A stretch of 63,773 bases of DNA, counting the filler, from Caldilineae bacterium (GTDB lineage: Bacteria > Chloroflexota > Anaerolineae > DTLA01): assembly GCA_037446815.1 (NCBI GenBank). It is 3 parts of 3 records of this genome, joined end to end, with 100 filler letters (N's around TTAATTAATTAA, not from the genome) between each part and the next. Parts side by side here need not be neighbours in the genome. Positions count along the whole stretch, not along the records: positions 22,697 to 45,229 come from JBBIHX010000038.1; 2 more parts are not named here. The stretch is one strand, 5' to 3'. The translations under genes were made by a program, and so were the position numbers. Shown piece by piece: positions 8,368 through 45,329 of the stretch. Numbering within the stretch: the first letter of the stretch is position 1; each line of letters starts with the position of its first letter. Under the pieces are notes generated by a model. The model had not been told where the DNA came from, did no database searches, and saw only the letters and a program-made list of their open reading frames with translations.

Positions 8368-8375
8368 CGCGCCAG

Positions 8376-18388: not shown

Positions 18389-18408
18389 CCTTTCCTGAGG
18401 CGTAACAC

Positions 18409-18441
18409 AGGCGGGAGTCGGGCATGCGGCTCCCGCTTTTT
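18409..18441 (+). terminator. Intrinsic terminator
   Basis: GCGGGAG/CTCCCGC stem followed by TTTTT. Confidence 0.75.
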
Positions 18442-18483
18442 GCATGCCCCGCGATGCGTTGGGCGCATGGTACCAAAAGGCCA

Positions 18484-18512
18484 TTGACCCTTCCCCCTGA
18501 GGCACGTATAGT
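18484..18512 (+). promoter_or_regulatory. Sigma70-type promoter
   Basis: TTGACC-17 nt-TATAGT. Confidence 0.65.
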
Positions 18513-18564
18513 GCGTAGTAGGACGCGCGTGCGTTGCATATCGTCATGGGCACGGGAGGGTGCT

Positions 18565-20646
18565 ATGGAAGTGATGGTTCTGAGGCGGCCCCGCTGGCTT
18601 GTGTGGGCGTTTGGCACGCTGTTTCTCCTGGCGTTGATGGCTTTGGGGGCCACGGATGCGCACGCTCAGGGACAACCTCAACTCCAATATGTCAGCCACG
18701 AGATCATCTACGACAGCATCAATCATGATGGCGTCGCCAATCCCGGCGAGTTTGTGTATCTGCAGGTGCGGATTCGCAACACCGGCGCGGTAACGGCCTA
18801 CAACGTCAGCGGTAGCCTTCGGACGGGCAACTGGGAAGCCACATGCTACGGCACCGGCGGCTACGGCGATGTGGGGATTGGCGAGGAGAAGGCGCAACAG
18901 TCCGGCGACCTGTATTTCTACCTCAGCCCACTCACGCCTGATGGCCGCGTGATTGAGTTTACGCTGGACTTGTTTGACCAGTTCGGCACCTACTACTCGC
19001 TGGGGCCTTTCCAGATTACCGTGGTGGACAACACGGGCCCGTACCTGCACGACAAGTCGGTAACGCCCAAGATCGCCAGTATATCCAGTTCTGTTACGCT
19101 GACCGCTACGCTGCAGGATGGCTCGGGTATCAACATGGTTACGGCTACCGTGCGCAGTTCGGACAACTCCATTGTTACGCAGTTCCCCATGTATGACGAC
19201 GGGGCGCACGGCGACGGGGCCGCGGGGGATGGCGAGTATGGCGCGGTGTGGACGACGCCATCGGTGGCGCACGACTTCATCGCCGGGTTCTCGGCGGTGG
19301 ACGGCCTGGGGAACGTGGCCGAGTATCCCGATGAGTTGGGGTTCACGACGCGCAGTTTCAGCCGCCATGCCAACATCCTTCTGGTCATTGACGACCTGAA
19401 TGAGCCGGGCCTGGACACATATTACACGAACGCGCTGGCTGCCAACAATTTCACCTACGATCTCTGGTACACCTTCTATCGAGGCTCGGTGCCCGATAGC
19501 GTGATTCTGAATTATGTGCCTTGCATCGTCATCTGGGCGGTGCCCGAGCGGGGGATGCTCAACGACCCGGAGACCCCGTCGGCGCGCAGCACGCTCATGA
19601 ACTACCTGGATCAGGGGGGCAAACTGTTCGTTACCGGACAGGATGTCGGCTACTATATCCACGATCATCCCTTTTATACAAGCTATCTCCACGCCGACTG
19701 GGTGCAGGACAACGTGGACATGTTCGCCATTCGGGGCATCTCGGGGGATGAGATTGGCGATGGGCTGGAGTTCACCATTGACGGGAGCGGCTCGGGCGCG
19801 GGCAACCAGCAGTGGCCCAGCGAGATCAACCCCATTTCGCCCGCGCAGCGCGTGTTTGAGTATTACACGCCCGCAGGCGCGGCGGCCCGACCGAAAACCG
19901 AAGCCACACGCGGCGCTCGCGGTTTTGGCGCAGGCGGACGGTCGCCGAAGCCGTCCGACGTGGAGCCGCAGGAGATTTTGCAGAGCGGGACGGCGGGCAT
20001 CCGCGTGGACACGGGCACGTACAAGGTCGTGTACTTCGCCTTCGGGTTTGAGGGGATTGACGACGAGGCCGACCGGAATGCCGTGATGTGCGCCGTCGTG
20101 GGCTGGCTCCATGGGCACTCCAACTTTGAGAAGAGCCTGGCCGTCGGGTGGAACCTGGTGTCGCTGCCGGTCATCCCGGAGAACACGGCGATCACGGAGG
20201 TGTTGTCGTCCATCGCGGGGAAGTACGCTCTGGTGGAGGCCTACGATGCGGAGCACGACACCTGGCGCATCTACGACCCGGCCATGCCACCCGCGGCCAA
20301 TACGCTTCTCACGCTGGACGAGGCCACCGCGTTCTGGATCAAGATGTGCGAACCGGCCACGCTTCAGGTGCCGGGCCTGCTGCCCATCTACACCGAACAG
20401 CGCCTGTTCGCGGGGTGGAATCTTGTCTCCTATCCGGCCTCGGAGCCGCGCACGGTGGCGGATGCCTTTTCGTCCATCGCCGGCAAGTACACGCAGGTCT
20501 TGCGCTACGAGCCGGGCGAGTCCACGGCCTGGAAACGTTACAATGTGGGCATCCCGCCCTGGGCGAACTCGCTGACCCAGATCACATCCGGCTGGGGCTA
20601 CTGGGTCTACGTTACGCAAGACTGCACGCTGGCTATCGTGAACTAA
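18565..20646 (+). CDS. Large secreted multi-domain protein (Ig-like/choice-of-anchor X-like domain, two GWNLVS repeats)
   Basis: Signal peptide ending AHA-Q; MYDDGAHGDGAAGDGEYG motif; two C-terminal GWNLVS...FW/YW repeats. Confidence 0.82.
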   Translation: MEVMVLRRPRWLVWAFGTLFLLALMALGATDAHAQGQPQLQYVSHEIIYDSINHDGVANPGEFVYLQVRIRNTGAVTAYNVSGSLRTGNWEATCYGTGGYGDVGIGEEKAQQSGDLYFYLSPLTPDGRVIEFTLDLFDQFGTYYSLGPFQITVVDNTGPYLHDKSVTPKIASISSSVTLTATLQDGSGINMVTATVRSSDNSIVTQFPMYDDGAHGDGAAGDGEYGAVWTTPSVAHDFIAGFSAVDGLGNVAEYPDELGFTTRSFSRHANILLVIDDLNEPGLDTYYTNALAANNFTYDLWYTFYRGSVPDSVILNYVPCIVIWAVPERGMLNDPETPSARSTLMNYLDQGGKLFVTGQDVGYYIHDHPFYTSYLHADWVQDNVDMFAIRGISGDEIGDGLEFTIDGSGSGAGNQQWPSEINPISPAQRVFEYYTPAGAAARPKTEATRGARGFGAGGRSPKPSDVEPQEILQSGTAGIRVDTGTYKVVYFAFGFEGIDDEADRNAVMCAVVGWLHGHSNFEKSLAVGWNLVSLPVIPENTAITEVLSSIAGKYALVEAYDAEHDTWRIYDPAMPPAANTLLTLDEATAFWIKMCEPATLQVPGLLPIYTEQRLFAGWNLVSYPASEPRTVADAFSSIAGKYTQVLRYEPGESTAWKRYNVGIPPWANSLTQITSGWGYWVYVTQDCTLAIVN

Positions 20647-23214: not shown

Positions 23215-23892
23215 GTGGCAGAACGCATCCTTGTGGTAGAAGACGACGCGAAGATCGCCGACCTCCTGCGGCGCGGCCTGGTCTTTGAGGGCTACGCCGT
23301 GGACGTGGCGGCCGACGGCGAGACCGCCCTGGCGCTGGCGCGCGACCGCGAGCCGGACATCGTCATCCTGGACCTGATGCTTCCGGGCATCAGCGGGCTG
23401 GAAGTCTGTCGCCGCTTGCGCGCCGCCAGCGACGTGCCCATCCTCATCCTCACCGCCAAGGGCGCCGTCGCCGACCGCGTCCAGGGCCTGGACAGCGGCG
23501 CGGATGATTATCTCGTCAAGCCCTTCGCCTTTGAGGAACTCCTCGCCCGCATCCGCGCCCTCCTCCGTCGCCGTCAGCGCGCCGAGCAGGAGGAAATCCT
23601 CCGCTTTGCCGACCTGACCATGAACACCTCCACGCGCAGGGTAACGCGCGGCGACCGCGTCATTGAACTCACCGCCAAGGAGTTTGACCTGTTGGAGTTG
23701 TTCCTGCTCCACCCGCGCCAGGTCCTCACCCGCGACACCATCTACGACCGCATCTGGGGCTATGATTTCGGCGGCGAGTCCAACATCCTGGAGGTGTACA
23801 TCCGCTACCTGCGCGCCAAACTGGAGGCGGGCGGCGAGCCTCGGCTCATCCACACCGTGCGCGGCGTCGGCTACGCCCTGCGCGAGGAGTAG
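23215..23892 (+). CDS. OmpR/MprA-family response regulator
   Basis: [24 protein letters not shown], winged helix ending TVRGVGY. Confidence 0.92.
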
Positions 23893-23896
23893 CCCC

Positions 23897-25269
23897 ATGC
23901 CCATCCGCACCCGTCTCACCTTCTGGTACGTGGCGTTGCTGGCGCTGGTGCTGGTTATCTTTGACGTGGCCGTGTACGCGGTTCTGTCGTACCGCACCTA
24001 CGCCGAGGTGGATCGCAGCGTCCAAACCCTGGCCGACCAAATCACCATGTCCATTCGGGCCGAAAACAACCCGCTGTCGGTGTTGGTCTCGGGGCGGGTG
24101 CGCCTGCCGTCGGTGGACGCCTTCTCTACGCCCGACACGTACTGGCAGGTGGTTCGTGCCGATGGGATCATTGCCGCCCGCTCGGCCAACCTGGGCGAGC
24201 AGAGCCTTCCGCTGGACGCCGAGGTGCTCCAGCGGACGCTCCAGGGCGAGAGCGTCCTGGCGACGGCGCGGGCAGGCGACACGCGCGTGCGCATCTACAG
24301 CGCGCCGCTCATTGTGCTGCGCAACATCGTGGGCACGGTGCAGGTGGGGGCCTCGCTGCGGGGGGTGGACGCGACGCTGCGGCGCGTGGCAGGGCTGTTG
24401 GCCGCGGGTACGCTGCTGGCCATCGCCGTTGCCGGCGCTGTGGGGTTCGCGCTGGCGCGGGCGGCCCTGCGCCCCATTGACGAAGTAACCCGGGCGGCGC
24501 TGAACATCACCCGCGCCGAGGACTTGAGCCGCCGCCTGGCCGAACCATCGGTGCAGGATGAGGTCGGCCGCCTTACCGCAACCTTCAACGAGATGCTGGC
24601 GCGGCTGGATGACCTGTTCCGCGCCCAGCAACACCTGGTGGCCGACGTGTCCCACGAACTGCGCACGCCGCTCACCACCATCCAGGGCAATCTGGACCTG
24701 CTCCGCCGCGGCGCGCTGGACGACCCCGACGCACGCCGCGAGGCCATCCGCGCCATTGAGGCCGAGGTCAGCGCCATGTCCCGCCTGGTGGCCGACCTGC
24801 TCCTGCTGGCCCAGGCCGACGCGGGCGTCAAGTTGGAGTTCCGCCCCGTGGAACTGGACACGCTCCTGCTGGACGTGTACCGCCAGGCGCAGACGCTATC
24901 GCGCGGCGTGAAGGTGAAACTGGGCGAGGAAGATCAGGCCCTGGTCATGGGCGACCCCGACCGGCTCCGCCAGTTGTTGCTGAACCTGGTGGACAATGCC
25001 CTGAAGTACACGCCCGCGGGCGGCGAGGTAACGCTCTCCCTCCAGCGGGAGCCGGGCTGGGTCTGCATCTCCGTGTCCGACACGGGCATCGGCATCCCGC
25101 CCGAGGACATCCCGCACATCTTTGAGCGGTTCTACCGCTCGGACAAGGGGCGCACGCGGGGCAAGGGCGGGACGGGCCTCGGCCTCGCCATCGCCAAGTG
25201 GATTGCCGAGGCCCACAATGGCCGCATCACCGTGGAAAGCGCGGTGAACAAGGGCAGCACGTTCACGGT
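23897..25269 (+). CDS. HAMP sensor histidine kinase (3' end in assembly gap)
   Basis: Two TM segments, HAMP, SHELRTPLT, NLVDNALKY, DTGIGI, GTGLGL. Confidence 0.9.
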
Positions 25270-25370
25270 NNNNNNNNNNNNNNNNNNNNNNNNNNNNNNN
25301 NNNNNNNNNNNNNNNNNNNNNNNNNNNNNNNNNNNNNNNNNNNNNNNNNNNNNNNNNNNNNNNNNNNNNT

Positions 25371-25640
25371 GGGCCCTCACCCCAGCCCTCTCCCGGTGGG
25401 CGAGGGTGCATGGCCGCGCGGGGCTGAGGCCGCTGCGGTGAGGGCGGGCTCTTGGGGGACGCGGCCCGGACCTGTCACCCTGAGCGGAGCGAAGGGTCTC
25501 GGTTCGCGAGATTCTTCGCCGCTTCGCGGCTCAGAATGACGGATTGTCGCGGGCGAGGGAGCTGGGCCCTCACCCCAGCCCTCTCCCGGTGGGCGAGGGT
25601 GCATGGCCGCGCGGGGCTGAAGCCGCCGCGCTGAGGGCAC
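25371..25640. repeat. Direct repeats of CCCTCACCCCAGCCCTCTCCC..GAGGG unit flanking a REP-like hairpin
   Basis: About 57-bp unit repeated at 25371 and 25565; GTCACCCTGAGC...GCTCAGAATGAC between them. Confidence 0.7.
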
Positions 25641-25752: not shown

Positions 25753-27309
25753 TCAGAACCGCCCCATTCCCTCTGCGCTCTCTGGGTCTCGGCGGTGAAT
25801 ATGGGGTACACCGCGCACCAGGATGCTCCCGCCGTACCCCCAGCCGCCCTCGTCCAGGACCACGCACAGCGCCGCGCTGATGAGGAGGTCGTCATGACCT
25901 GCCGCTTCGGGCACGCACCAACGGATGCGCTGGCCCGGGCCGGGCAGGTACTCCACCTCCGCCGCCTCCACCTGCTCCCAGAAGAGACGGCGCAGCGCGT
26001 CCAGCGGCGCGGCCTGCGGATCGCCCGCGCATGGGCCGTGATCCCGAAACCGCCCCGCGTCGCAAGCGGCCATGAATCGCCAGCCGATTTCGGACTTGCG
26101 GGCCGCCGTGAACACGACGGGAATCACCCGCTCGTCCAGCGCCGACCGCAGCAGGTCGGTGATGCCCGCGCCCACGCCGGTGGCGTCGGCGACGATGGCC
26201 GCGGGATTCCACGCCTCGGCCAGCGCCCGAATCTGCCCATACAGCGTGCGGTGGTCCACGCTTGTCCATGCCCTGCGGTGCACCACGCGGTACACGGGCA
26301 GGCTCACGGCATCGTCGGCGTCAATTGCGACGATGGTGAGGGCCGTGGCGTCGTGATCGGCCGGACGAGGCGCGCCCCCCGTCGGCGGGTATCCATCCTC
26401 GGCATCCTCACGTGGCGCGGGCGCGGCGGGGCCGCCGAAATCCAGCAGGAAGGCGTAGGCGCAGTCGGCCTGGGGCGACAGATGGGGCTGGTGATTGCCC
26501 TGCATCAGGGCGCGGCGCTGGGGCGGGAACATCCCCGCGCCCGCGTCCAGTTCCTCCAGGAAGTACTGCGTGCGGATGAGGGGATGCTGGCGGCCCATGC
26601 GCGCCACTTCTTTCTCCAGGTGCGCGGCGTAGGCGGGGACTTCGGCGGCGACCACGTCGGCGGGAACCAGAAAGACGCGCCGAACGCCGTCGCGGGCCTC
26701 CTGCGCGCGGAGTTCGCGGATCACCCGCGCCAGGAGCGTGTTGCGCGTCCAGGCCGTACCGTAGAACACGGTGGTAACATTGGCCGACGCGCCCATGGGG
26801 GCGAAGTCCTTGTCCCATTTGTCGGGGTCCACGTCTTGGGCCTCGTCGCATTCCAGGAGGATGCTGGCCGTCTGGCCGACGACGTTGGCCTCCGGGTGGG
26901 CGCTGAGGAAGACGGCGCGCGCCTTGCCTACCGTGAGGACGTTGCCATGCTCGCGGGCAATGCGGCCCTTCGTCAGCGGATTCTCCAGCAGCGCGGCGAG
27001 GCGCTCCATGCTGACGACGGCCTGCGGCGCGAAGGTGGGCGCCGCCTTGACCAGCGTCCCCCCGACGCGCGAGTGCAGCGCCAACAGGTACGCCTCCACC
27101 TGGGCCGAGAGTTCGTTCTTGCCCGCCTGTCGGCTCATCATCACGGCGAAGGTCAGCCCGCGCCCGCGCAGGACGCTGTCCACGATGGCCTGGGCGGGCG
27201 CCAATTGATAGGCGCGCAGGGGCCGCGCCAGAATGTGGCGGCTGAACAGGTCTATGCGGCGCAGGATGTGGGTCAGCGCGCGCAGGCGCAAGGTGCGTCG
27301 GTCGGGCAT
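25753..27309 (-). CDS. Phage terminase large subunit-like protein (ATPase plus RNase H-like nuclease)
   Basis: LRAYQ Q-motif, Walker A SRQAGKN, Walker B LECDEAQ, YGTAW coupling motif, nuclease LLDFGG / DATGVG / HDDLLISAAL; RBS GAGGAG. Confidence 0.82.
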   Translation of the reverse strand: MPDRRTLRLRALTHILRRIDLFSRHILARPLRAYQLAPAQAIVDSVLRGRGLTFAVMMSRQAGKNELSAQVEAYLLALHSRVGGTLVKAAPTFAPQAVVSMERLAALLENPLTKGRIAREHGNVLTVGKARAVFLSAHPEANVVGQTASILLECDEAQDVDPDKWDKDFAPMGASANVTTVFYGTAWTRNTLLARVIRELRAQEARDGVRRVFLVPADVVAAEVPAYAAHLEKEVARMGRQHPLIRTQYFLEELDAGAGMFPPQRRALMQGNHQPHLSPQADCAYAFLLDFGGPAAPAPREDAEDGYPPTGGAPRPADHDATALTIVAIDADDAVSLPVYRVVHRRAWTSVDHRTLYGQIRALAEAWNPAAIVADATGVGAGITDLLRSALDERVIPVVFTAARKSEIGWRFMAACDAGRFRDHGPCAGDPQAAPLDALRRLFWEQVEAAEVEYLPGPGQRIRWCVPEAAGHDDLLISAALCVVLDEGGWGYGGSILVRGVPHIHRRDPESAEGMGRF

Positions 27310-27388
27310 GGTCATCTCCTCGTGCTGGGGCGGCGTTTGTCTGTGGGCCCGCTAATCCCTTGTTTCGCACAGGCTATCGGCCCATGCT

Positions 27389-27401
27389 GCGTTGATAAGG
27401 G
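27389..27401 (-). promoter_or_regulatory. Upstream motif CCCTTATCAACGC (copy A, terminase leader)
   Basis: Identical to 33968-33980 and in the same orientation relative to the downstream gene. Confidence 0.55.
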
Positions 27402-27507
27402 TGAACATGCGCGGCTTGCCCGCCAGGCGGCCCTGCGCTACAATCCATCCGAAACGGGCTGCCACCCATGGCACCATCTGTGGCACTAACCCCAGGAGGT
27501 GAGGATC

Positions 27508-30500
27508 ATGAGCCGATCCGGGTCTTCATCCCAACTCGGCGACGCCGACTACAGGGCGCTGTTTGATGGCCTGCCCGTCGGCGTGTACCGCACGACGCCC
27601 GATGGCCGGGTCCTGATGGCCAACCCCGCGCTCGCCCGCATGTTGGGCTACGCCTCGCCCGAAGAACTGATGCGGCTCAATTTGGAGAAAGAGAGCCTAG
27701 GCGACGAGTACTCCCGCGCCGAGTTCAAGAAGCGCATGGAGCGCGACGGCTTCATCGTGGGCTGGGAGACATCGTGGGTGCGCCGCGACGGGAGCCGTGT
27801 CTTCGTGCGCGAATCGGCCCGGGCCATCCGCGACGACAGCGGCAAGATTTTGTATTACGAGGGCGTTGTGGAGGACATCTCCGAGCGCAAGCAGGCCGAG
27901 GAGGCGCTGAGGGCGTCGGAAGAGCGGCTGCGCATCCTGTTTGAGTACGCGCCCGACGCTTACTATCTCAGCGACCTGAAGGGCGTGTTCGTGGACGGCA
28001 ACCGCGCGGCCGAGGAGATGGTGGGCTACAAACGGGAGGAACTCATCGGCGGGAGTTTTCTGAAGTTGAAACTCCTCTCGCCGTCGCAGATCCCGCGGGC
28101 GGCGGCGCTCCTGGCCCGCAATCTCCTGGGGCAGCCCACCGGCCCCGATGAGTTCATCCTCACCCGCAAGGACGGCTCCAAGGTCGTAGCGGAGATTCGC
28201 ACATACCCCGTCAAGATTCACGGGCAGTCGCTGGTGTTGGGCATCGCCCGCGACGTAACCGCGCGCAAGGAAGCGGAGCGGCAGATCGCCGAGCGTCGGC
28301 TGTACCTGGAGGCGGTGCTGGCCGCCGCGCCCGACGCCATCATCACGCTGGACGCGCAGCACCGCGTGGCGGAGTGGAACGCGGGGGCCGAGCGCCTGTT
28401 CGGCTACACCCGCGACGAGGCTGTCGGCAAGAACCTGGACGACCTCATCGCTACGGCTCATGCTCGCTCCGAGGCCACCGCCCTCACTACGCAGGTGATG
28501 AGCGGCGAGGCCGTCCCGCCCACCGAGGTCATCCGCTATCGCAAGGACGGCTCGCCGGTGAATGTCATCGTCGCAGCGTCGCCTGTGCTCGTGGAGGGGC
28601 ACTTCATCGGCGCGGTGGCCGTGTACGCCGACATCACCGAGCGCAAACGGGCCGAAGAGGCCCTGCGAGAGAGCCAGGAGCGACTTCAAGACTTCCTGGA
28701 CAACGCCACAGACCTGATTCAGATGGTGGACATGCAGGGGCGGTTCTTGTACGTCAATCGCGCGTGGCGCAAGGCCCTGGGGTATTCCGAGGCCGAGGTC
28801 CCCGGCCTGACCCTGCCGGACATCATCCACCCTGACTCCATGGATCACTGCATGCGGCTGTTCGGGGACATGGCCGCAGGGCAGTGCAATGTGGTGAACG
28901 TGGAGGCGACGTTCATCACCAAGGATGGCCGGCCGATTCAGGTGGAAGGGAACGTATCCTGTCGCATGGAGAACGGCAAGCCCATCTCCACGCGGGGCAT
29001 CTTCCGCGACATCACCGAGCGCAAACGGGCCGAAGAGGCCCTGCGAGAGAGCGAGGCCCGCTACCGCGCCCTGTTTGACAACATCCCCATTGGCCTGTAC
29101 CGCACCGCGCCCGACGGGCGCATCCTGGACGCGAATCCGGCCCTGCTGGAGATGCTGGGGTACGCAAGCCTGGAGGAATTGCAGCGCGTCAGCGCCGGCG
29201 ACGTGTACCTGAACCCCGCCGACCGCGCGCGCCAACAGGAGATTTTGGAGCGCGACGGAGTGGCGCGCGCCTTTGAGCAGCAGATGCGTCGCAAGGATGG
29301 CTCGGTCATCTGGGTCCTGGATAACGTCCGCGCCATCCGCGATGCCGACGGCCGCATCGTCTGGTACGAGGGCAGCCTGGAGGATATCACCGAGCGCAAG
29401 CGGGTGCAGGAGGAACTCCGCAAGGCAAAGGAAGCCGCCGAGGCCGCCAATCGCGCCAAGAGCGAGTTCCTGGCCAACATCAGCCACGAAATCCGCACCC
29501 CCATGAACGGTATTATCGGCATGACCGAACTCGCCCTGGATACCGAACTCACGCCCGAACAGCGCGAGTATCTCACCATGGCGCGCAACTCCGCCGAATC
29601 GCTCCTGCGCATCCTCAACGACATCCTGGACTTCTCCAAGATTGAGGCAGGCAAACTGGACATGGAATCCGTCCCGTTCAGCCTGCGCGACTGCCTGGGC
29701 GACACGATGAAGGCGCTGGCGGTGCGCGCGCACAACAAGGGCCTGGAACTGGCCATGGACATCCCGCCCCATGTCCCAGATGCCCTGGTGGGGGATCCCG
29801 GACGGCTTCGCCAGATCGTGGCCAACCTGGTGGGCAACGCCATCAAGTTCACCGAGATGGGCGAGGTGGTGCTGTTCGTGGAGTGCGCCGAGGAGACGGA
29901 CGAGGAAGCGGTCTTGCAGTTCGCCGTGGCCGACACGGGCATCGGCATCCCGAAGGAGCGCCAGCAAGCCATCTTTGAGGCGTTCACGCAGGCCGACAGT
30001 TCTACCACACGCCAGTACGGGGGTACCGGCCTGGGTCTGACCATCTCGTCGCGGCTGGTGCAGATGATGGGCGGCAAACTGTGGGTTGAGAGCGAAGTGG
30101 GCGTCGGCAGCACGTTCTACTTCACGGCCCGATTCGGCATCCAGAAGGGCGTGAGTGTCTGGCCCACGGCGGAACTGGGCGACCTGCGCGGCCTGCCCGT
30201 CCTGGTGGTGGATGACAACGAGACCAATCGGCGCATCTTGCAGGCTATGCTGACCTCGTGGGGATGCCGGCCGGTGCCCGCGGCGAGTGGCCGCGAGGCG
30301 CTGGCCCTGGCGCGGGATGCTGCCAAGAAGGGCCGCCCCTTCCCGCTGCTCCTCACCGACGTGCGCATGCCCGAGATGGACGGCTTCATGCTGGTGGAGC
30401 AGGTTCATGGGGACGCAGCGCTGGCCGATGTGCGGGTCATCGTCCTCTCGTCGGCGGGCATGGTGGGCGACGCGGCGCGCTGCCGGGAATTGAACGTGTG

Positions 30501-31389
30501 CGCATACCTCATCAAGCCGGTCAAGCAATCCGAATTGCTGAACGCCATCCTGACGGTGATGGCTCCCAAGGAGGCCGAGGTCGCCCCGCCGCCCTTGGTT
30601 ACGCGCCACACGCTGCGCGAGATGCGCAGCCGCGTGCGCGTGCTCCTGGCCGAGGACAACCCGGTGAACCAGCGCCTGGCAGTGCGACTCCTGGAGAAGC
30701 GCGGCCACCTCGTTACCGTCGCAAACAACGGGCAGGAGGCGCTGGCAGCGCTGGAACGCGAAACGTTTGATGTGGTGCTCATGGATGTGGAGATGCCGGT
30801 CATGGATGGATTCGCGGCGACGGCCGAAATCCGCAAGCGCGAACAGGAGACCGGCCGGCATATCCCCATCGTGGCGATGACCGCCCATGCGATGAAGGGC
30901 GACCGCGAGCGGTGCCTGGCGGCCGGCATGGACGACTACGTGCCCAAGCCCCTGCGCGTAGAGCAACTGATGGCGGTCATAGATCGCCTGACTTCCGGCC
31001 GCAGCGAGGCGCCAGCGCCTGCCCAGGCGGAGGCGGCGGTGGGAGCAGAACCGGCGTTTCGCATGGACGTGGCGCTGGAGCGCGTGGGCGGCGATGAAGA
31101 CCTGCTGCGCGAAATCGCGGGCATGTTCCTGGAGGAGTCGCAGGGACTGCTGGAGCAGGTGCAGCAGGCCATCGCCGAGGGGGACGCTACCCTGCTCAGG
31201 CGGGCAGGCCACACGCTGAAGGGCCTGGCGCGGAACTTCGGGGCGGAGGAGGCGGCGCAGGCGGCGCTGGCGGTGGAGCAAATCGGCGATGAGGGCCGCA
31301 TGGACGAGGCACCAGCGGCGGCGACGCGATTGCGGGCCGAGGTGGACCGGCTCTGCCAGGCCCTGCGCGAGTTCTTGGGAACGCAATAG
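27508..31389 (+). CDS. Cytoplasmic hybrid histidine kinase (5 PAS, HisKA, HATPase, 2 REC, Hpt)
   Basis: Five PAS/PAC modules ending D(I/V)(T/S)x[20 protein letters not shown], two receivers, HTLKG Hpt. Confidence 0.93.
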
Positions 31390-31456
31390 GATTCACCGCG
31401 GAGACGGAGAGCACGCAGAGAAAAATCAGAATTCCTCCGCGCCCTCTCCGTCTCTG

Positions 31457-31606
31457 CATTCGGTTCCATCTTGTGTTGGTGAACCGTAGGCATACTCTCC
31501 TCGTGTGTCATTGCGAGCGAAGCGAGGCAATCCCACGCCCCGGAGGTTGCTTCGGGCGCTCTGCGCCCTCGCAATGACAGCCACCAACAGACTTTGGAAT
31601 CGCCTC
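31457..31606. mobile_element. MITE copy 5, inserted into a CACCGCGGAGAC repeat
   Basis: Same termini; flanks CGTCTCTG/CGTCCCTG (7/8). Confidence 0.78.
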
Positions 31607-31655
31607 CGTCCCTGCGGTGCAGTCAGCGTTCTCCGCGGTGAATCCAGCCGCAGGG

Positions 31656-32723
31656 CTACCCGCCGCTCTCCGCCAGCCGGCGCTTCACGTGGCCGATGTT
31701 GGCGATGCGTGTCGGGTCCTCGCCGTTCAGCAGCGCCAGATAGTAACTCACCCAGTCGCCGAAGTGCACCAGGCTCAGCACCTCGGCCAGGCGACTCCCC
31801 CCTCTGGGACGCACCGCTTCCCACGCGATGCCGTTCCTGTCCAGCACCTCGCCCGTGATGTCGCAGCGCAGGGCGTTGCGCGGGTGGTAGCGCTCGGACC
31901 GCAGGATGAACACGGTGAGCGGCGCGCCAACACCGTCGGGATGGCCGAACCCCTCCACGACGTTATGGCATAGTTCCGGCAGGATGGCGTGCCCCGCGAA
32001 GTTCTTGGCGTTCTCGTTGAACTGGCCTTGCCACCGCGCGGCGACCTGGGCCAGGTGCTCCGCGCCGTAGGCGAAGGGGATGCGGCCGCGCAGCCGCAGC
32101 GCCATCTGCTTGGCGGCGTTTTCCTCGGCGGGCACGCGCGGGGCCAGTTCCGCGCCCCAGTGTTCCACGACGGCAGCAGCATCGGATACGTCGGCGCTCT
32201 TGTCGGCCACCCAGCCCAACTTCTGCGCGATGGCGAGCAGCGGGATGAGGGAATATCCCAGCGCCGCGCGGGGTTGGCCCTTGAACGGAATCGTGTACGT
32301 GGGCGCGCCCCACTCTTTGGCCAGGCGCAGGAGTTCGCCGCCCGACGCCAGGGCGATGATGCGCGCGCCGCGCTCGCGGGCCTGCCGCGCCGCCGACAGC
32401 GTCTCCTCGGTGTTGCCCGAATACGACGAGGCGATGACCAGCGTCCGCTCGTCCACGAAGGCGGGCAGGTCATAGTCGCGGCTGATGACGAGGGGCACAG
32501 GGCACTCCCCGGCGATAATGCCCTGCAGCAGCGCCCCGCCGATGGCCGACCCGCCCATGCCGGCGATGACGGCATTCTCGGCCAGGGCGTAGTCCGGCGG
32601 CAAGGCCAACTCGCGCGCCGCCGCCCATGCCTCGCGGCAGTGCCGGGGCAGGTCGGCAATGGCCTCGCCCATGCCCGACGGGTCCAGTTTCCGCATCGCG
32701 TCCACATCGTCTAGAAGTTCCAC
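31656..32723 (-). CDS. Bifunctional phosphoglucose/phosphomannose isomerase
   Basis: GMGGSAIGG, SYSGNTEETL, QPRAA, FNENAK, PELCHN, DWVSYYLA. Confidence 0.92.
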   Translation of the reverse strand: MELLDDVDAMRKLDPSGMGEAIADLPRHCREAWAAARELALPPDYALAENAVIAGMGGSAIGGALLQGIIAGECPVPLVISRDYDLPAFVDERTLVIASSYSGNTEETLSAARQARERGARIIALASGGELLRLAKEWGAPTYTIPFKGQPRAALGYSLIPLLAIAQKLGWVADKSADVSDAAAVVEHWGAELAPRVPAEENAAKQMALRLRGRIPFAYGAEHLAQVAARWQGQFNENAKNFAGHAILPELCHNVVEGFGHPDGVGAPLTVFILRSERYHPRNALRCDITGEVLDRNGIAWEAVRPRGGSRLAEVLSLVHFGDWVSYYLALLNGEDPTRIANIGHVKRRLAESGG

Positions 32724-32751
32724 ATGTCCTCCCGTGTTTCACCGCATGGAC

Positions 32752-33633
32752 TCACCGCCGGGGCGCGGAGGACGCGGAGGAAGCGCCCGATTCTCCCTGT
32801 GCGTCCTGCGCCTCCCCGGCGATCTGTCGCGTCATTGAGTAGAGCAGGCGTTTGCGCCAGCCGGAGCGGGCGGCTACGTCCGCCGCGGCGTCGCGCACGC
32901 TCCAGCCCGCGGCCAGACGCTGGGCCAGCGCCGCCCGCACCTGCTCCTCGCTCCACGCCTGCGGCTCGGCGGCGCCGCCGATGACGAGCGTGAACTCGCC
33001 GCGCGGCGCATGCTCGGCGAAGTGCGCCCGCGCGCCGGATACCGTCCCCCGCCACATCTCCTCGTGCACCTTGGTCAACTCGCGGGCGATGGCCACGGGG
33101 CGGTCGCCCAGCGTGTCCAGGATGTCGGCTAGGGTATCCAGGAGGCGGTGCGGGGCTTCGTACAGCACCAGGGTTCGCCGCTCCCCGCGCAATGCCTCAA
33201 GCGCCCTGCGCCGCTCGCCGGCCTTGCGCGGCAGGAAGCCGACGTAGACGAAAGCGTCCGTCGGCAGGCCCGATGCGGCCAGCGCCGCGACGATGGCCGA
33301 GGGCCCTGGCACCGGCACCACCGGGAAGCCGCGCTCCAGCGCCGCCCGCACCAGTTCGTAGCCCGGGTCGGAGATGCCTGGCATCCCCGCGTCCGACACC
33401 AGGGCCACGTCGCCCGTCTCCAGCGCCGCCAAGATGGCGTCCAATTTGGCGAGTTTGTTGTGTTCAAAGTAACTGGTGGTGGGCGTGTGGATGTCGTAGC
33501 GCGCCAGCAGCGTGCGCGTGTGGCGCGTGTCCTCGGCGGCGATGAGGGAGACCTCGCGCAGGATGCGCAGCGCCCGCAGAGTGATGTCCTCCAGATTGCC
33601 GATGGGTGTCCCCACCAGATACAGCGTGCCCAC
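32752..33633 (-). CDS. rsmI: 16S rRNA (cytidine1402-2'-O)-methyltransferase
   Basis: GTPIGNLEDITLRAL, AAEDTR, SDAGMPGISDPG, YEAPHRL, RELTKVHEE. Confidence 0.95.
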   Translation of the reverse strand: MGTLYLVGTPIGNLEDITLRALRILREVSLIAAEDTRHTRTLLARYDIHTPTTSYFEHNKLAKLDAILAALETGDVALVSDAGMPGISDPGYELVRAALERGFPVVPVPGPSAIVAALAASGLPTDAFVYVGFLPRKAGERRRALEALRGERRTLVLYEAPHRLLDTLADILDTLGDRPVAIARELTKVHEEMWRGTVSGARAHFAEHAPRGEFTLVIGGAAEPQAWSEEQVRAALAQRLAAGWSVRDAAADVAARSGWRKRLLYSMTRQIAGEAQDAQGESGASSASSAPRR

Positions 33634-33716
33634 CGTTCCCTCCTTGAGCGCCCGCATTATAGTCCGATGGGCGCGGTGTGTCCATTTTGCGCGGGGCGCG
33701 GCTGGGGGATGAGATG

Positions 33717-33900
33717 CACCACGGAGAGCGCGGAGGGCGCGGAGCATGCAGAGAAAAATCAAAATCCCTCTGCGCCCTCTCCGTCTCCGCGGTGCAGTAA
33801 GCGTTCACCGCGGAGATGCAAGACGCCGAGACAACCCGGAGGGCGCGGAGAAACCTAAGAAAAACCCTGCGTCCTTTGCGCTCCCCGCGCGTTCACCCCC
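33717..33900. repeat. Tandem CACCGCGGAGA..GCAGAG/CTCTGC..CCGCGGTG hairpin repeats
   Basis: Two adjacent imperfect palindromes; same family near 22944, 31394, 32754 and 40667-40980. Confidence 0.65.
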
Positions 33901-33967
33901 AGAGGATGAAAACGGTGCTGCCGATTTTCGGATCGGGGCATGCGGAACGTCGCCATACCCCTGCCTG

Positions 33968-33980
33968 CCCTTATCAACGC
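33968..33980 (+). promoter_or_regulatory. Upstream motif CCCTTATCAACGC (copy B, connector/tail leader)
   Basis: Exact match to the motif upstream of the terminase gene. Confidence 0.55.
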
Positions 33981-34030
33981 GGGCCACGCGTGTTACAACA
34001 GGGCCAACGACCTGCAATGGGAGGTTCGCC

Positions 34031-34476
34031 ATGCCCTTCGCCAATCGCAGCGAATTCCTTGCCGCCATCGCCCGCGACCTGGGCGACCCCGACGGCGCTA
34101 CCTGGACGTCGGACGACCTGTCCCGCGCCCTGGATCATGCGCTCAGCGACCTGGCCGATGCCATCGGCGCGCCGGCCTCGGTGGATGTCCCCGCCGATGG
34201 CTCCGACACCTACGACCTGGCCGCCCATCCGGACANNNNNNNNNNNNNNNNNNNNNNNNNNNNNNNNNNNNNNNNNNNNNNNNNNNNNNNNNNNNNNNNN
34301 NNNNNNNNNNNNNNNNNNNNNNNNNNNNNNNNNNNTGGGTGTCGCGCCGCTACGAACTCCAGGGCCAGCGGCTCCAGGCGCAGTTCCGCGACGCGCTGGC
34401 CGAACTGCGCCAGGCCCGCGAAGATGTGCCGTACTGCCCAGGCCAGACCCCTGCGTGGTACGATGCCGACGAGTAG
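34031..34476 (+). CDS. Putative phage head-tail connector/adaptor-like protein (interrupted by 100-N gap)
   Basis: N-terminus ARDLGDPDGATWTSDDLSRALDHAL resembles gp15/gp6-type adaptor starts; RBS GGAGG; helical C-terminus after the gap. Confidence 0.55.
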
Positions 34477-34526
34477 CATCGCCGCCCCGAGCGTGAGCGA
34501 CTGACATCTTGCCGCGGAGGTGCGGG

Positions 34527-36449
34527 ATGATTCCCATGTCCGAAACCTTGCAGGCGGCGGTGAAGTCGGAGCGGCGGGTCCCATGCGCCCGCCTCTCCAT
34601 CCGCGACCGGCAACTGCGCTGGTCGGCGATCCATGGGGACGGGGACGAGAGCGCGCTCCAGACGGCGCTGGCGGTGGCGTCCGGCGGGGCGTGGGTGCGG
34701 GCGCGGCTTGGGGCGGGAGGCGCGTTCCAGGTTCAGCGCATCGCCGACCCCGAAGACCCCGACGATTGGGAAGCCTGGGACACGTTGCTCTCCTCGGGCG
34801 CGGCCAACGATGTCGCCATCGCCGCCGAGGGCAACCTCGCGCGCGCCTTCTGCATCGTGGCCGAGAGCGGCGCGTGGCGGGTCAAGGTGTGGGTCTCCGG
34901 CGACGGCGGCGCGACGTGGGCGGGGCCGGCCGTCGCCTGCGAGTCCTCCGCGGCCATCACCAGCGTTGCCAGCCCCGCGCCCGACGCCATCGCCTGGACG
35001 TCCGGCGGCATCCTGCGCCTGTCGCTATGGGATGGCGCGGCGTGGGGCGAGGCGGCGGCGTGGAGCGCGGGCGCCGTCCTGGCCGATTACGGCATCGCGT
35101 GCGCGCGGCGCGATGGCGTGTACCGCTTCCTCCAGGCCGGGCTTCTCGCCGACGGCGCGTACCTGCGGGCCGTGTCGTGGGATGGCGTGGCCTGGTCCGA
35201 GCCGTGCGCGGTCGTCCCCACAGGCATCCCCGCCGATACGCTCATCCCCCGCTGGCCGTCGCTGGCATGGATTGGCGATCGCCATCTCGCGGCCTACCTG
35301 GACACCTTCGCCGGCAGCCTGACCTACCAGACGCCCACCGTGCGTTTCTCCTGGGACTTTGAGCACTGGTCCTATCCGTGCGCCCTCAACCTCAACTCGG
35401 ACGGGCCGACGCGGGCCAACATCGCCCTGGACGCGGATCGGGCCGTGGCCGTCATGGAGAACTCGGCGCTGGCGGCTTCGCTGGGGCGCTCGCTGGAAGG
35501 ATTCGCCGGCATCTTGCGGGCGGAACGGGTAGAGGCCGAGGGCTATGGCTCGCTGCGAATGCTGCTGCACGGCGACGCCGCGCTGGAGTGCGCGCCCCTG
35601 TTGCCCTACGCGGAGGCGGTGCTGAGCCTGGGGTATCGCACCCAGGCGGGGTGGGAAAGCGTTGAGGCCGCGCCCATGTACATCGCCTCGGTGCACCGCG
35701 CCCGCGGCGAATCGCGGCCCGGAGCCGAGGTGCTCGTGCACGCCCGTGATGGCTGGGGCCTTCTGGTCGAATGGCAGGCGCTGACGACCGAGGCGTGGGA
35801 GAACGTCTCGCTGGGCTGGCTGCTGGCGGAAATCCTGATGCGGGCGGCGGGGTTGCGCCTGCGAACGGACAACGCGCCCGCGTGGGAGGCCACGGTGGCC
35901 CGGTTCGCCATTCCGCGCGGCGCGCACGGTCATGCCGTCGTTCGCCAACTGCTGCGCCACGCCGGGGCGCGTGCGCGGTGGGACGCAGACGGCTCCCTGT
36001 ACGCCTTCCTGCCGGCCGCCCAGCCGTGGGCCTGCGACTGGGCATTTGACGCCGAGGTTGCGCGGGCGAGGCATGGCGTGGCCAGCGCGGGCGTTACGCT
36101 GGCGCGGGTCGCGGGGCTGTACCCGGCCATGGGCCAAGCGCAGGACGCGTGCGCCGCCCAGCAGCAAGGCCGGACCCTGGGCGCGGTGGCGGATGACGGG
36201 TACCTGACCACGTCCGCGCAGTGCGCCGAGGCCGCGGCGGCCCTGGTGGCCCAGGGGACGGCCCGCGCGCTGAGGGGCAGTCTCACCACGGCCATCGTCC
36301 CGGGGCTGCAGGTGCTGGACCGGGTTACGGTGGACGACCCCGCCCTCGGCCTTGTCGCCGCCGAACGCCGCGTGGTCGCCATTCGCACGGTGTGCGACGC
36401 CCTGCGCGGGGTCTGGCAGCAGACGGTGGACGTGGAGGGCCTCGCGTAG
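34527..36449 (+). CDS. Putative phage tail/baseplate-hub-like protein with N-terminal beta-propeller
   Basis: Asp-box SGDGGATW, Trp-rich beta region; C-terminal ...AEAAAALVAQ...GSLTTAIVPGLQVLDRVTVDD...RRVVAI typical of tail hub proteins. Confidence 0.6.
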   Translation: MIPMSETLQAAVKSERRVPCARLSIRDRQLRWSAIHGDGDESALQTALAVASGGAWVRARLGAGGAFQVQRIADPEDPDDWEAWDTLLSSGAANDVAIAAEGNLARAFCIVAESGAWRVKVWVSGDGGATWAGPAVACESSAAITSVASPAPDAIAWTSGGILRLSLWDGAAWGEAAAWSAGAVLADYGIACARRDGVYRFLQAGLLADGAYLRAVSWDGVAWSEPCAVVPTGIPADTLIPRWPSLAWIGDRHLAAYLDTFAGSLTYQTPTVRFSWDFEHWSYPCALNLNSDGPTRANIALDADRAVAVMENSALAASLGRSLEGFAGILRAERVEAEGYGSLRMLLHGDAALECAPLLPYAEAVLSLGYRTQAGWESVEAAPMYIASVHRARGESRPGAEVLVHARDGWGLLVEWQALTTEAWENVSLGWLLAEILMRAAGLRLRTDNAPAWEATVARFAIPRGAHGHAVVRQLLRHAGARARWDADGSLYAFLPAAQPWACDWAFDAEVARARHGVASAGVTLARVAGLYPAMGQAQDACAAQQQGRTLGAVADDGYLTTSAQCAEAAAALVAQGTARALRGSLTTAIVPGLQVLDRVTVDDPALGLVAAERRVVAIRTVCDALRGVWQQTVDVEGLA

Positions 36450-40727: not shown

Positions 40728-40980
40728 AACCCACTGCACCGCNNNNNNNNNNNNNNNNNNNNNNNNNNNNNNNNNNNNNNNNNNNNNNNNNNNNNNNNNN
40801 NNNNNNNNNNNNNNNNNNNNNNNNNNNNNNNNNNNNNNNNNNCAGAGAAAAACCCAGAATTCCCTCTGCGTCTCCACGGTGAAACCCACTGCACCGCGGA
40901 GAAACGAAGAACGCAGAGGGGAAAAACCAGAATCCCCTCTGCGCCCTCTGTGTCTCGGCGGTGAATTTCCTCCGCGGTGA
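40667..40980. repeat. Tandem CACCGCGGAGA hairpin repeats (collapsed at gap 40743-40842)
   Basis: Identical CAGAGAAAAACCCAGAATTCCCTCTGCGTCTCCACGGTG on both sides of the gap. Confidence 0.65.
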
Positions 40981-40994: not shown

Positions 40995-42452
40995 CTACCG
41001 CCGCCTCGCTAGCAGCCGCATCACGTGCCCGCGCTCATCGGCCTCGGGGAACCGCGCCGCCCACAGCAGCAGCGGGAACGCGGCCACCAACCCGGCGCGC
41101 GCCGCGACCCTCGCCCCCAGCGGCAGCGATCCCAGCGCCAGCACCGACGCCGCCCAGAGCGCCGCGCCCAGCCCCACCATCAGGCCCAAGCGCCGATACT
41201 CCCATCGGATCGGATACACGCGCTGGCCCGCGATGAACGTAATGGCCGCCAGCGCCACGTAGCCCACCACCTTGCTCCACGCCGCGGCCCCGATCCCGTA
41301 CCGCGGGATGAGTCCCACGTTCAGCGCGATGTTGAGGACAGCCGCGGAGCCGGTGAGAAACGGCAGATACGCCGTCTTCCGCCGATAGAACAGCGCGAAC
41401 ACGGCCGGATAGTAGAACCCCTGCGCCAGGTGGGCCAGGGTAACCACGGGCACCCACTGCGCCGCGGCGTGGTACGCGGGGTTCGCCACGATGCGAATCA
41501 CGTCCCCGCCCAGCGTGGCCAGGCCCAGCGCCGCAAAGGTCGCAATCCCCAGGTAGTAGGTGAAAAAGCGGGCCAGTTTCCGCTCCGCGTCCGGCTCCGA
41601 CGCCACGCGGTAGAAGAACGGCATCCAGGCCGTGTTCAGCGCCTGCATGATGAGGCTCAGGGCGATGCTCACCTGGTAGGCCAGCGTGTACACGCCCAGT
41701 TGCTCCAGCGGCACGAGGTGGTTCAGAATGCTGCGGTCGGAGAGGGTCAGCGCCCAGTGGGCCAGCAGATGGGGCACGACGGGAAGCCCATACACGAAGC
41801 CCTCGGCCACCCACCGCCGCCGGAACGCCAAGGCCGCATGGCGAAACGTCGTGAGCACGTAGAGCACCGCCATGATGCCCGAAGCGATCATCACTCCGCG
41901 CAGGTTGCCCAGCGCCCCCTCCCGCCGCCCCACCACGTAGTACAGGATGGCCGCGGTGGTCAGCAGGAACGCGCCGACCGTGTAGGCCACGTAGCAGCGC
42001 GGGCGCTCTTGCACGCGGAAGATCACCAACGGAATCACCGAAGCATTGGCGAAACACGCCGTCCACAACAGCGTCGTAACGTAGGGCGAAAACGGGATGT
42101 CCCGCACCGCAGCGCCAAAGAGGGCGGGGCCTAGCGGCGTCGCGACGAGAATTAGGGTGAGGGCCGCGCCGAGGAAGAGCACGGCTAGGGCCAGCGTCCC
42201 CAGCAGTTCGCGGCGCGCCGCCTCGTCGGGCACGTCGTAGTAGAACCGCATGGCCGCCGCGTTCAGGCCCAGCGGGTACACAATCCCCAGCACGGCAGTC
42301 AGGCTGCTCGCCACGCCCAGGATGCCATAGTCGGCGGGCGACAGGTAGCGCGTGTACACGGGAATCAGCAGGAAGGCGATGGCCTTCGTGAGCAGGTCGC
42401 CCAGCCCGTAGGTTGCCGATTGCACCACCAGGCTCTGGAGTTGGCTGAACAA
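40995..42452 (-). CDS. Polysaccharide flippase (Wzx/MOP family)
   Basis: FLLIPVYTRYLSPADYG, many TM helices, LNVGLIPRYGIGAAA; TTG start after GAGG. Confidence 0.87.
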   Translation of the reverse strand: MFSQLQSLVVQSATYGLGDLLTKAIAFLLIPVYTRYLSPADYGILGVASSLTAVLGIVYPLGLNAAAMRFYYDVPDEAARRELLGTLALAVLFLGAALTLILVATPLGPALFGAAVRDIPFSPYVTTLLWTACFANASVIPLVIFRVQERPRCYVAYTVGAFLLTTAAILYYVVGRREGALGNLRGVMIASGIMAVLYVLTTFRHAALAFRRRWVAEGFVYGLPVVPHLLAHWALTLSDRSILNHLVPLEQLGVYTLAYQVSIALSLIMQALNTAWMPFFYRVASEPDAERKLARFFTYYLGIATFAALGLATLGGDVIRIVANPAYHAAAQWVPVVTLAHLAQGFYYPAVFALFYRRKTAYLPFLTGSAAVLNIALNVGLIPRYGIGAAAWSKVVGYVALAAITFIAGQRVYPIRWEYRRLGLMVGLGAALWAASVLALGSLPLGARVAARAGLVAAFPLLLWAARFPEADERGHVMRLLARRR

Positions 42453-42462
42453 GATGACCTCG

Positions 42463-43560
42463 CTATTCGCCCGCGTTGGGCGGTGGGGGCGTGCGCAACA
42501 GCACTTTGTCAAACGTCAGGATTTCGTCGGCGTCCACATCTGCCAGCGCCGTGCCGCCCACGACGTAGTCGTACAGCGTCGGTGGGATGCCGGTGCCAGG
42601 GCGCTTGCACACCACGTCGTCGGCGGCGATGGTCTGGCCCTGGCGAATCGGGCGGGCTGCCACCAGGCTGCGGCGGGCGTGGGCGCGGGCCACCTCCTCC
42701 GACGGCAAGTAGCGCTTCTCGTCGCTCCCGAACAGCGTCTCGGCGAACCGCACGCGCTCCACAAATCGCGCCAGGTCGTTGGCGTCCATGGCGTGGTAGT
42801 GATCGTTGCCGGGGAGCGTCTTGTCGTGGGTGTAGTGCTTCTCCAGAACCTGCGCGCCCAGGAGCCACGCCAGAAGCAGCACCTCATCCATGCGGTCGGC
42901 GGGCGTGTGGTCCGAGTAGCCGATGATGTGATCGGGGAAGACGCGGCGCATGTGGGCGATCATCCCCAAGTTCGCATCGGCGTAGGCCGTCGGGTAATTC
43001 AGCACGCAGTGGAGAAGGGCCACCTGCTCATTTCCCTCCGCGCGGATGATCTCCAGCGCGCGGTGGATTTCCGACACGGTGGACGCGCCGGTGGACAGGA
43101 GAATCGGCTTGCTCTTCTGAGCGATGCGGCGCAGGAGCGGCACGTTCGTGATGTCGGCCGACGCGATCTTGTACGCCGGCATCAGCGGCTCCAGCATGTC
43201 CACTGCCCGCAGGTCAAACGGCGTGGACAGGAAGTCTATGCCGCACTCCGCCGCGACCTGAGCCAGCCGCTCGTACTCCCTGTCGCCAAAACGGTCGTAC
43301 TTCTTGAACAGTTCGTATTGACTGCGTGTCGGCTCCTTGGTGGTGTCCCAGTACGAAGGCGAGTGGCGCGATGCCAGCGTCTCGGCCTTGTACGTCTGGA
43401 ACTTGATGGCGTCGGCCCCTGCCCGCGCGGCGCGGCGCACCATCTCCACGGCCACCTCCAGGCTGCCCTCGTGGTTCACGCCCGCCTCGGCGATGATGTA
43501 GGGGCGCTGGAATCGCCCGCGCGCCAGGGTTCGCTTGCCGATGGTCATCTCATTGGGCAT
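42463..43560 (-). CDS. N-acetylneuraminate/nonulosonate synthase family (NeuB-like) with SAF domain
   Basis: IIAEAGVNHEG, KFQTY, STPFD, KIAS, GYSDHT, EKHYT, ARRSLVA, KRPGTGI. Confidence 0.92.
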   Translation of the reverse strand: MPNEMTIGKRTLARGRFQRPYIIAEAGVNHEGSLEVAVEMVRRAARAGADAIKFQTYKAETLASRHSPSYWDTTKEPTRSQYELFKKYDRFGDREYERLAQVAAECGIDFLSTPFDLRAVDMLEPLMPAYKIASADITNVPLLRRIAQKSKPILLSTGASTVSEIHRALEIIRAEGNEQVALLHCVLNYPTAYADANLGMIAHMRRVFPDHIIGYSDHTPADRMDEVLLLAWLLGAQVLEKHYTHDKTLPGNDHYHAMDANDLARFVERVRFAETLFGSDEKRYLPSEEVARAHARRSLVAARPIRQGQTIAADDVVCKRPGTGIPPTLYDYVVGGTALADVDADEILTFDKVLLRTPPPPNAGE

Positions 43561-45220: not shown

Positions 45221-45229
45221 GGAGCCTCC

Positions 45230-45329
45230 NNNNNNNNNNNNNNNNNNNNNNNNNNNNNNNNNNNNNNNNNNNNTTAATTAATTAANNNNNNNNNNNNNNN
45301 NNNNNNNNNNNNNNNNNNNNNNNNNNNNN
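45230..45329. other. Artificial scaffold linker
   Basis: N-run with TTAATTAATTAA at 45274-45285. Confidence 0.95.

Follow-up and report, generated by a model that had tools for sequence, protein, structure and literature searches.

A phage-derived head-and-neck gene set dispersed in Anaerolineae chromosomes, probably a gene transfer agent-like system

In this paper we looked at a 63,773-nucleotide stretch of DNA from Caldilineae bacterium (assembly GCA_037446815.1; Chloroflexota, Anaerolineae), called here the window, which carries three phage-derived genes: a large terminase (TerL) that stands alone and, on the same scaffold, a pair encoding a head-tail adaptor and a tail hub. Our analysis suggests that these three genes are probably part of a domesticated, co-regulated remnant of a phage head and neck with seven genes, most likely resembling a gene transfer agent (GTA). 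To judge from the four genomes in the order to which the window belongs, the full set is spread over five units, which are TerL, the adaptor with the hub, the portal, a fusion of prohead protease and major capsid protein, and a pair of small proteins (c76 and c1). These are chromosomal genes for phage-derived structural and packaging proteins, they are vertically inherited and they are under purifying selection. The initial annotation of the window had proposed a vertically inherited DNA-packaging particle and not a prophage; selection, dispersal and the single copy in the order agree with this, and the particle itself is what we infer from the genes that were kept.

The open reading frame (ORF) found between two signalling genes, a histidine kinase and a hybrid kinase, is a true large terminase by family, fold and motifs, as first proposed. 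It matches Pfam Terminase_6C (PF17289; E 1e-7, 32.5 bits with a cut-off of 22.6) and the large-terminase families of PHROG. Its AlphaFold 2 (AF2) model, with a predicted local distance difference test score (pLDDT) of 87, shows an N-terminal ASCE (additional strand, catalytic glutamate) ATPase followed by a C-terminal RNase-H-like nuclease, and the best Foldseek matches in the PDB are all large terminases (T4 gp17, HK97, D6E and Sf6), including 3cpe (T4 gp17, 2.8e-15), 6z6d (HK97) and 5oe8 (D6E, template modelling (TM) score 0.58). When the ATPase and nuclease domains were matched separately, TM scores of 0.69–0.78 were obtained. Across 25 aligned TerL homologues R62-Q-A-G-K-N-E68, L153-L-E-x-D-E-A-Q160, D292, D377 and H474-D-D-L-L478 are invariant; following T4 gp17, we take these to be a Walker-A-like motif (RQAGKNE), the Walker B motif with its catalytic glutamate (LLExDEAQD) and the acidic nuclease triad, all unchanged in the 25 sequences. 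The start codon is probably the better spaced ATG at 27309, which gives a protein of 518 residues. At least 1442 homologues exist, and the named ones are all 'hypothetical proteins' from Anaerolineae or Chloroflexi metagenome-assembled genomes (MAGs). Profile searches against PDB sequences gave no matches for TerL or for the adaptor.

The 640-residue protein is, according to its predicted structure, a sialidase-like propeller fused to a tail hub of the gp27/Mu gp44 type, and here too the fold search agreed with the first description of a propeller and hub. The N-terminal part resembles the beta-propeller of sialidases and pseudaminidases and contains the Asp-box SGDGGATW, whilst the C-terminal ~340 residues take the fold of Mu gp44, gp27, VgrG and the hubs of contractile injection systems (CIS). 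The PDB matches are 7aef_q (2.3e-17), 1wru (Mu gp44; 1.2e-15, target TM 0.69), 9ki1_G and VgrG chains, and those in BFVD are named 'tail protein', 'Phage protein D' and '43 kDa tail protein'. The hub has no Pfam or PHROG match, and a word-based search found 20 homologous proteins. A T7 gp12-like nozzle had also been considered for this protein and was dropped when the fold search gave a gp27-type hub. For the smaller gene of the pair, the fragments visible in the window have no Pfam match; in its family (c4) one of three scanned members passes the SU10_adaptor threshold (PF24175; 32.4 bits against 27), and the related cluster c15 passes it as well (36.8 bits). The initial annotation was right about both proteins of this unit; the start of the small gene is corrected from 33746 to an ATG at 34031 preceded by GGAGG. 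The orthologue in locus L002 has 204 residues, of which the window shows 68 + 46 codons on the two sides of a gap. A predicted complex of the G002 portal and adaptor scored 0.00, in a run made without control pairs.

The window's GTDB family and order consist of four genomes (G001–G004), which are MAGs of 3.2–3.7 Mb. TerL is found in all four, exactly once in each; the portal also occurs once in each, on another contig than TerL, and the protease-capsid gene is present in three (G001, G003 and G004) on yet another contig. The adaptor–hub pair was found in G002, G003 and G004, and the c76–c1 pair in 4/4. A search for scattered portal and capsid genes and a test of TerL as a conserved single copy had been proposed at the outset; in the related genomes portal and capsid genes do lie elsewhere, and TerL is single-copy. 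The portal belongs to phrog_10963 (1e-33 and 5e-25), and the capsid to phrog_4523, a 'major head and protease protein', and to Pfam Phage_capsid_4 (up to 2e-39). In the fifth unit, c76 has 94–97 residues with two or three hydrophobic helices, which would make it a holin-like membrane protein, and it is followed by c1, a zinc-ribbon-like protein of 140 residues in the order. In most relatives c1 is directly upstream of TerL, and it is a candidate small terminase. The units are flanked by permeases, ABC (ATP-binding cassette) transporters, glycosyltransferases, threonine-pathway enzymes, Fe-S proteins and kinases, and no integrase, replication or lysis genes occur in the flanks of the dispersed units in the order genomes.

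Aligning the upstream regions of TerL, adaptor, portal and capsid shows a common promoter-like element, in which CCCTTATCAAC precedes TAnnnn with 15 nt between them (14 at the TerL of the window). When one mismatch at most is allowed, CCCTTATCAAC has only two sites in the window, each correctly oriented before one unit; 0.35 sites are expected by chance, and two or more copies appeared in 4 of 100 shuffles. In G001–G004 there are 15 exact sites, compared with 3 for a reversed control. All 15, like the two in the window, lie 58–103 nt upstream of the start codon of a unit, and the start codons behind all 15 are preceded by GGAGG. Two of these sites belonged to no unit known until then and, together with a third site in G003, they revealed the c76–c1 unit. 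A looser pattern adds three more sites, at TerL of G003 and G004 (one and two changes) and at c76 of G002, out of a total of 25 (5 for the control) that also takes in the promoter of pdxS, in three genomes, and four sites without an explanation. The exact form of the element marks this gene set, and outside the G001–G004 loci it has one match (L069), inside a TerL gene. In the distant genomes G077 and G150 and in locus L043 neither this motif nor any other common one was convincing. The element reads as a putative sigma-70-like promoter, with a −35 TTATCA, a 17-nt spacer and a −10, to which a special extension is added. The upstream motif first noticed before the two units of the window is also that of the portal, the capsid and the fifth unit, and its presence at all five units would fit a host-controlled regulon. 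The promoter of pdxS, a pyridoxal phosphate (PLP) synthase gene, consists of CTTGTCAAC, 14 nt and TATAGAAT (G004:C74:14730, G003:C28:1921 and G002:C98:174). It gives a view of the order's housekeeping consensus, from which the promoter of the set differs mainly by TTATCA and a CCC extension.

The ratio of nonsynonymous to synonymous substitutions (dN/dS), a test that the initial annotation had proposed, was calculated by the Nei–Gojobori method with our own script. For the phage-derived genes it is 0.13–0.24 (TerL), 0.18–0.20 (hub), 0.16 and 0.24 (adaptor), 0.09–0.15 (portal) and 0.18 (capsid), and for their host neighbours it is 0.16–0.18 (hybrid kinase), 0.17 (pgi) and 0.15 (rsmI). The synonymous distances (dS) range from 0.10 to 0.68 and rank the genomes alike, whether phage-derived or host genes are taken. 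All frames of the dispersed units in the order are open, the stop codons flagged in TerL and portal of G001 being the ones that end these genes, and the composition of terminase and hub is host-like, with G+C at third codon positions (GC3) and synonymous codon use inside the range of the host genes. Because of the host-like dN/dS, the matched dS, the open frames and this codon use, neutral decay and recent arrival are excluded for the set. Over a wider range of genomes, TerL and capsid distances are correlated even when the two genes lack linkage or come from different contigs (r 0.74 in 15 genomes, a few of the different contigs being short; 0 of 2000 permutations reached as high a value), and the correlation is 0.91 where they are clustered.

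The relatives of the set point to its origin. TerL-family loci number 294 in our genome collection, and the neighbours of 80 of them were gene-called and clustered; gene calling misses or merges some genes, as with the uncalled portal of L107 and the merged adaptor and hub of L109. A recurrent module runs c1 (~150 aa), TerL, portal, a 670-aa protease/major-capsid fusion, small proteins, adaptor (c4) and hub (c7), and among 81 sources the clusters count 45 for c1, 28 for the portal, 24 for the capsid, 18 for the adaptor and 11 for the hub. In IMG/VR, 236 contigs carry the TerL family, none of them more than 57% identical to the window's TerL. The set descends from compact modules of this kind, which exist both in relatives and in IMG/VR contigs, and its ancestor was presumably an Anaerolineae phage whose short tail ended in a hub. 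Of 200 sampled Anaerolineae genomes, TerL was found in 42, the capsid in 45 and both in 33, and in nine genomes the two are 2–4 kb apart. In others, among them the near-complete G150 and G077, they are far from each other: on the 3.3-Mb contig of G150, 44 kb containing cellular genes separate TerL from portal, capsid, adaptor and hub; on a 2.8 Mb contig of G077 the distance from TerL to the portal-capsid-adaptor-hub genes is 128 kb; and in G105 TerL and portal are ~150 kb from capsid, adaptor and hub. Patchy homologues lying in prophages had been named as a finding that would speak against domestication. This is not the case in the window's order, where the other two findings named, relaxed selection and missing capsid or portal genes, are not seen either; the distant homologues are patchy, and many are in compact phage-like modules or in IMG/VR contigs.

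Other arrangements are also seen among the relatives. In 18 of the 80 loci a c1–TerL–c5 unit lies amid cellular genes with no head genes nearby (L005, L009, L011, L019, L020, L023, L032, L034, L036, L037, L040, L043, L044, L053, L056, L057, L064 and L069; at position ~10000 in most). The c5 protein (~235 aa) has a C-terminus like sigma-70 region 4 and matches a PHROG sigma-factor family, and its N-terminus resembles the N-terminal part of the capsid-fusion profile (217-aa ORF beside TerL in G059); for these lineages c5 is a possible regulator of the split system. In a quick TerL tree, with Shimodaira–Hasegawa-like approximate likelihood ratio test (SH-aLRT) support, 17 of the 18 rows form one clade (100), and the clade of the window (100) groups with the eighteenth (95). 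On contig G105:C2 (L111 and L112) there are two tandem adaptor copies within a single 433-aa frame, and the portal match of G105 has an in-frame TGA. A TGA also occurs inside the TerL matches of G117 (G117:C5), of G066 and of one G177 copy, and G177 has up to six TerL matches, four loci being from its MAG. The G105, G117, G066 and G177 lineages may carry active or decaying phages instead of the domesticated form. In a variant at L029, L038 and L067 the order is c31 (326 aa, with a weak match to a replication-initiator PHROG), hub, c32, TerL and c33 (500 aa, without a family match), so that the hub is upstream of TerL, and it is adjoined by a long kinase gene. In the compact cluster of six genes in G077 (L104), small ORFs at 8362–8595 and 9415–9675 (86 and 77 aa, the second hydrophobic) lie on the two sides of the adaptor, towards the capsid and towards the hub respectively; they may be the functional counterparts of c76 in the window's order.

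A possible mechanism is that a signal or regulator turns on the five promoters together, after which the protease-capsid protein would build heads on portal rings and TerL, with c1, would pack DNA by headful. The adaptor and hub would seal the portal and form a stub tail, the sialidase-like propeller of the hub may bind a surface glycan, and the membrane protein could aid particle release. Since the genes are scattered, such a particle would probably be unable to carry its own genome and would act as a gene transfer agent and not as a virus; the units are on different contigs, or 44–128 kb apart in relatives. The most economical interpretation of what is encoded is that DNA-filled particles may move host DNA, because both activities of TerL are retained alongside the portal, the protease-capsid, the adaptor and the hub. 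A more specific proposal, which we regard as tentative and would place a little short of an even chance, is that this is an independent Chloroflexota GTA, descended from a short-tailed, hub-tipped phage whose genome was split into five promoter-tagged units and turned from a virus into a host regulon, and that the related splits with TerL tens of kb from the head genes belong to an old and widespread Anaerolineae clade.

Several observations weigh against these interpretations. The protease-capsid gene was not found in G002, nor the adaptor–hub pair in G001; all the genomes are MAGs and may be incomplete. For the window's own genome we infer portal and capsid from relatives, and its adaptor gene is split by a gap and may not be intact. 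Neither c1 nor c76 has a family match, and the roles proposed for them come from gene position and hydropathy. The analysis identified neither a tail fibre nor an endolysin nor a dedicated regulator; a search of the order for a c5 (sigma-like) orthologue gave only region-4 matches to ordinary sigma factors. In its −35 part the motif looks like a housekeeping promoter, pdxS having two boxes at the same spacing, and therefore co-regulation by a special factor is no more than a possibility. At the level of the class the distribution is patchy (42/200 genomes).

One alternative, less probable and yet the strongest that we considered, is that the set is domesticated and co-regulated and has a role other than gene transfer. 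It could interfere with infecting phages related to the ancestral one, by decoy packaging or by capsid hijack as in capsid-forming satellites, it could release DNA for the biofilm matrix or for repair, or it could form a killing or adhesion particle. Selection, dispersal and the common promoter fit such roles equally well, the lack of a detected tail fibre and endolysin is in line with them, and a defence role would have a target, as phages that are related and have this module occur commonly in Anaerolineae. However, the terminase motifs, the portal, the protease-capsid and the neck are all kept, which points to filled heads, and a killing particle or adhesin has no need for TerL or a capsid.

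It is very improbable that the genes are functionless, decaying leftovers of one or several old prophages that were rearranged. The phage origin is clear, single MAGs have incomplete sets (G001 and G002, as described) and gene order around the pieces varies among genomes, but every copy in every genome has an open frame at dS 0.26–0.68, with dN/dS of 0.09–0.24 as in pgi, rsmI and the hybrid kinase, and neutral decay would have erased both these frames and the 11-nt element that is exact at 15 sites.

The domesticated set also has to be seen in its genomic setting. The window is a chromosomal scaffold of 65% G+C with 100-N scaffold gaps at 25270–25369, 34236–34335, 40743–40842 and 50881–50980. 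Pfam scans of 47 of its ORFs found cellular genes, such as transporters, homoserine dehydrogenase, NAD salvage, kinases, pgi, rsmI and a NeuB-type sugar cluster, and the terminase as the sole phage-related match. No integrase, replication, lysis or further phage genes were found among these ORFs, as had been noted from the start, and tblastn of the phage-module proteins of relatives against the window gave no additional ones. The combination expected of a contiguous prophage (integrase or att site, replication, lysis and structural genes together) is absent from the window, and the pieces in relatives are flanked by cellular genes. In L002, whose TerL is 85% identical, the order is DUF1848, GAF/PAS, rsmI, pgi, hybrid kinase, TerL, adaptor and hub; unlike this, the adaptor–hub pair of the window is inverted and lies between rsmI and GAF/PAS. 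The arrangement in the window is real, because the rsmI/adaptor and hub/GAF-PAS junctions are both within contigs and G004:C10 independently has the order pgi-rsmI-adaptor-hub-GAF/PAS. We give hardly any weight to the idea that assembly, binning or scaffolding of MAGs dispersed a contiguous prophage, for which one can cite the gap inside the adaptor gene and another 383 nt from the terminase, since besides these junctions TerL, portal and capsid are each at least 8–20 kb inside contigs amid cellular genes in several independent MAGs, and the 3.3 and 2.8 Mb contigs show the 44 and 128 kb separations. The coordinates are collected in Table 1.

Table 1. Positions of the phage-derived genes, their promoter-like elements and neighbouring genes in the window.
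Feature	Position	Strand	Remarks
Large terminase TerL	25753..27315	(-)	520 aa; Pfam, PHROG, fold, motifs and dN/dS (see text)
Promoter-like element of terminase unit	27371..27401	(-)	CCCTTATCAAC 27401-27391, 14 nt, TAGCCT; 86-92 nt upstream of start codon
Promoter-like element of adaptor-hub unit	33968..33999	(+)	CCCTTATCAAC 33968-33978, 15 nt, TACAAC 33994-33999; 63 nt upstream of ATG 34031
Head-tail adaptor, N-terminal 68 codons	34031..34235	(+)	87% identical to L002 orthologue; runs into gap
Head-tail adaptor, C-terminal 46 codons plus stop	34336..34476	(+)	77% identical to L002 orthologue; GC by codon position fits coding frame
Tail hub	34527..36449	(+)	640 aa; AF2 pLDDT 89.2; Foldseek PDB and BFVD; dN/dS (see text)
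Histidine kinase	23663-25441		Terminase neighbour; runs into N gap
Hybrid kinase	27499-31389		Other terminase neighbour
pgi	31656-32723		Beyond hybrid kinase
rsmI	32752-33762		After pgi

Other features of the window can be mentioned. A nonulosonic-acid-type sugar cluster (40995–45277), 4.5 kb downstream of the hub, encodes a Polysacc_synt flippase, NeuB plus SAF and a cytidylyltransferase-glycosyltransferase; as the hub propeller is sialidase/pseudaminidase-like, this suggests a possible receptor sugar. The ORFs at 14485–15852, 18406–20646 and 2368–3183 (455, 746 and 271 aa) have coding-like GC3 and no Pfam match. Paired 44-N blocks with 12 bases between them are found at 22597–22640/22653–22696 and 45230–45273/45286–45329, unlike the 100-N scaffold gaps; they may represent masked or withheld sequence.

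Few lineages are known to have GTAs, and in those studied best the head genes are clustered together. Anaerolineae, which are difficult to cultivate, abound in sediments, digesters and hot springs. Among the papers listed in literature searches and judged by title or abstract, none described a GTA for Anaerolineae or Chloroflexi. If our interpretation is true, the set would be a separate origin of virus domestication and the most atomised yet described, and a built-in DNA-exchange particle would bear on the evolution of Anaerolineae. The 11-mer CCCTTATCAAC predicts the whole of the putative regulon, which makes the interpretation directly testable.

In RcGTA, which is the GTA found in Rhodobacter capsulatus, terminase, portal, protease, capsid and tail genes form one cluster of roughly 15 kb, and the particle has a long non-contractile tail. 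RcGTA has at least 24 genes in five loci (PMC5026251), which are co-expressed; the set described here is similar in that phage-derived head and tail genes are kept by the host over several loci. It differs in that the core head genes are in single-gene units, the tail is reduced to adaptor plus hub, the host is a member of Chloroflexota and the function is putative. Head-tail loci derived from Caudovirales in Thaumarchaeota have no att sites or replication genes and were proposed to be domesticated and GTA-like, with their conservation taken as a sign of domestication (PMC6563490). Our set, too, is a module for virion morphogenesis that lacks att sites and replication genes; those loci are contiguous and archaeal, whereas here there are five dispersed units with a common promoter, and selection was measured. 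The compact modules of Anaerolineae and IMG/VR contain the same families in the same order, with TerL 42–57% identical, yet they are contiguous, sometimes present in several copies per MAG, carry extra small genes and are without the exact CCCTTATCAAC element. Capsid-forming phage-inducible chromosomal islands (cf-PICI) are chromosomal as well and have their own terminase, portal, capsid and connectors and no full tail; they are contiguous, integrase-bearing and mobile. The set in the window's order shares with them the packaging and head genes without a full tail, but its genes are scattered among housekeeping genes.

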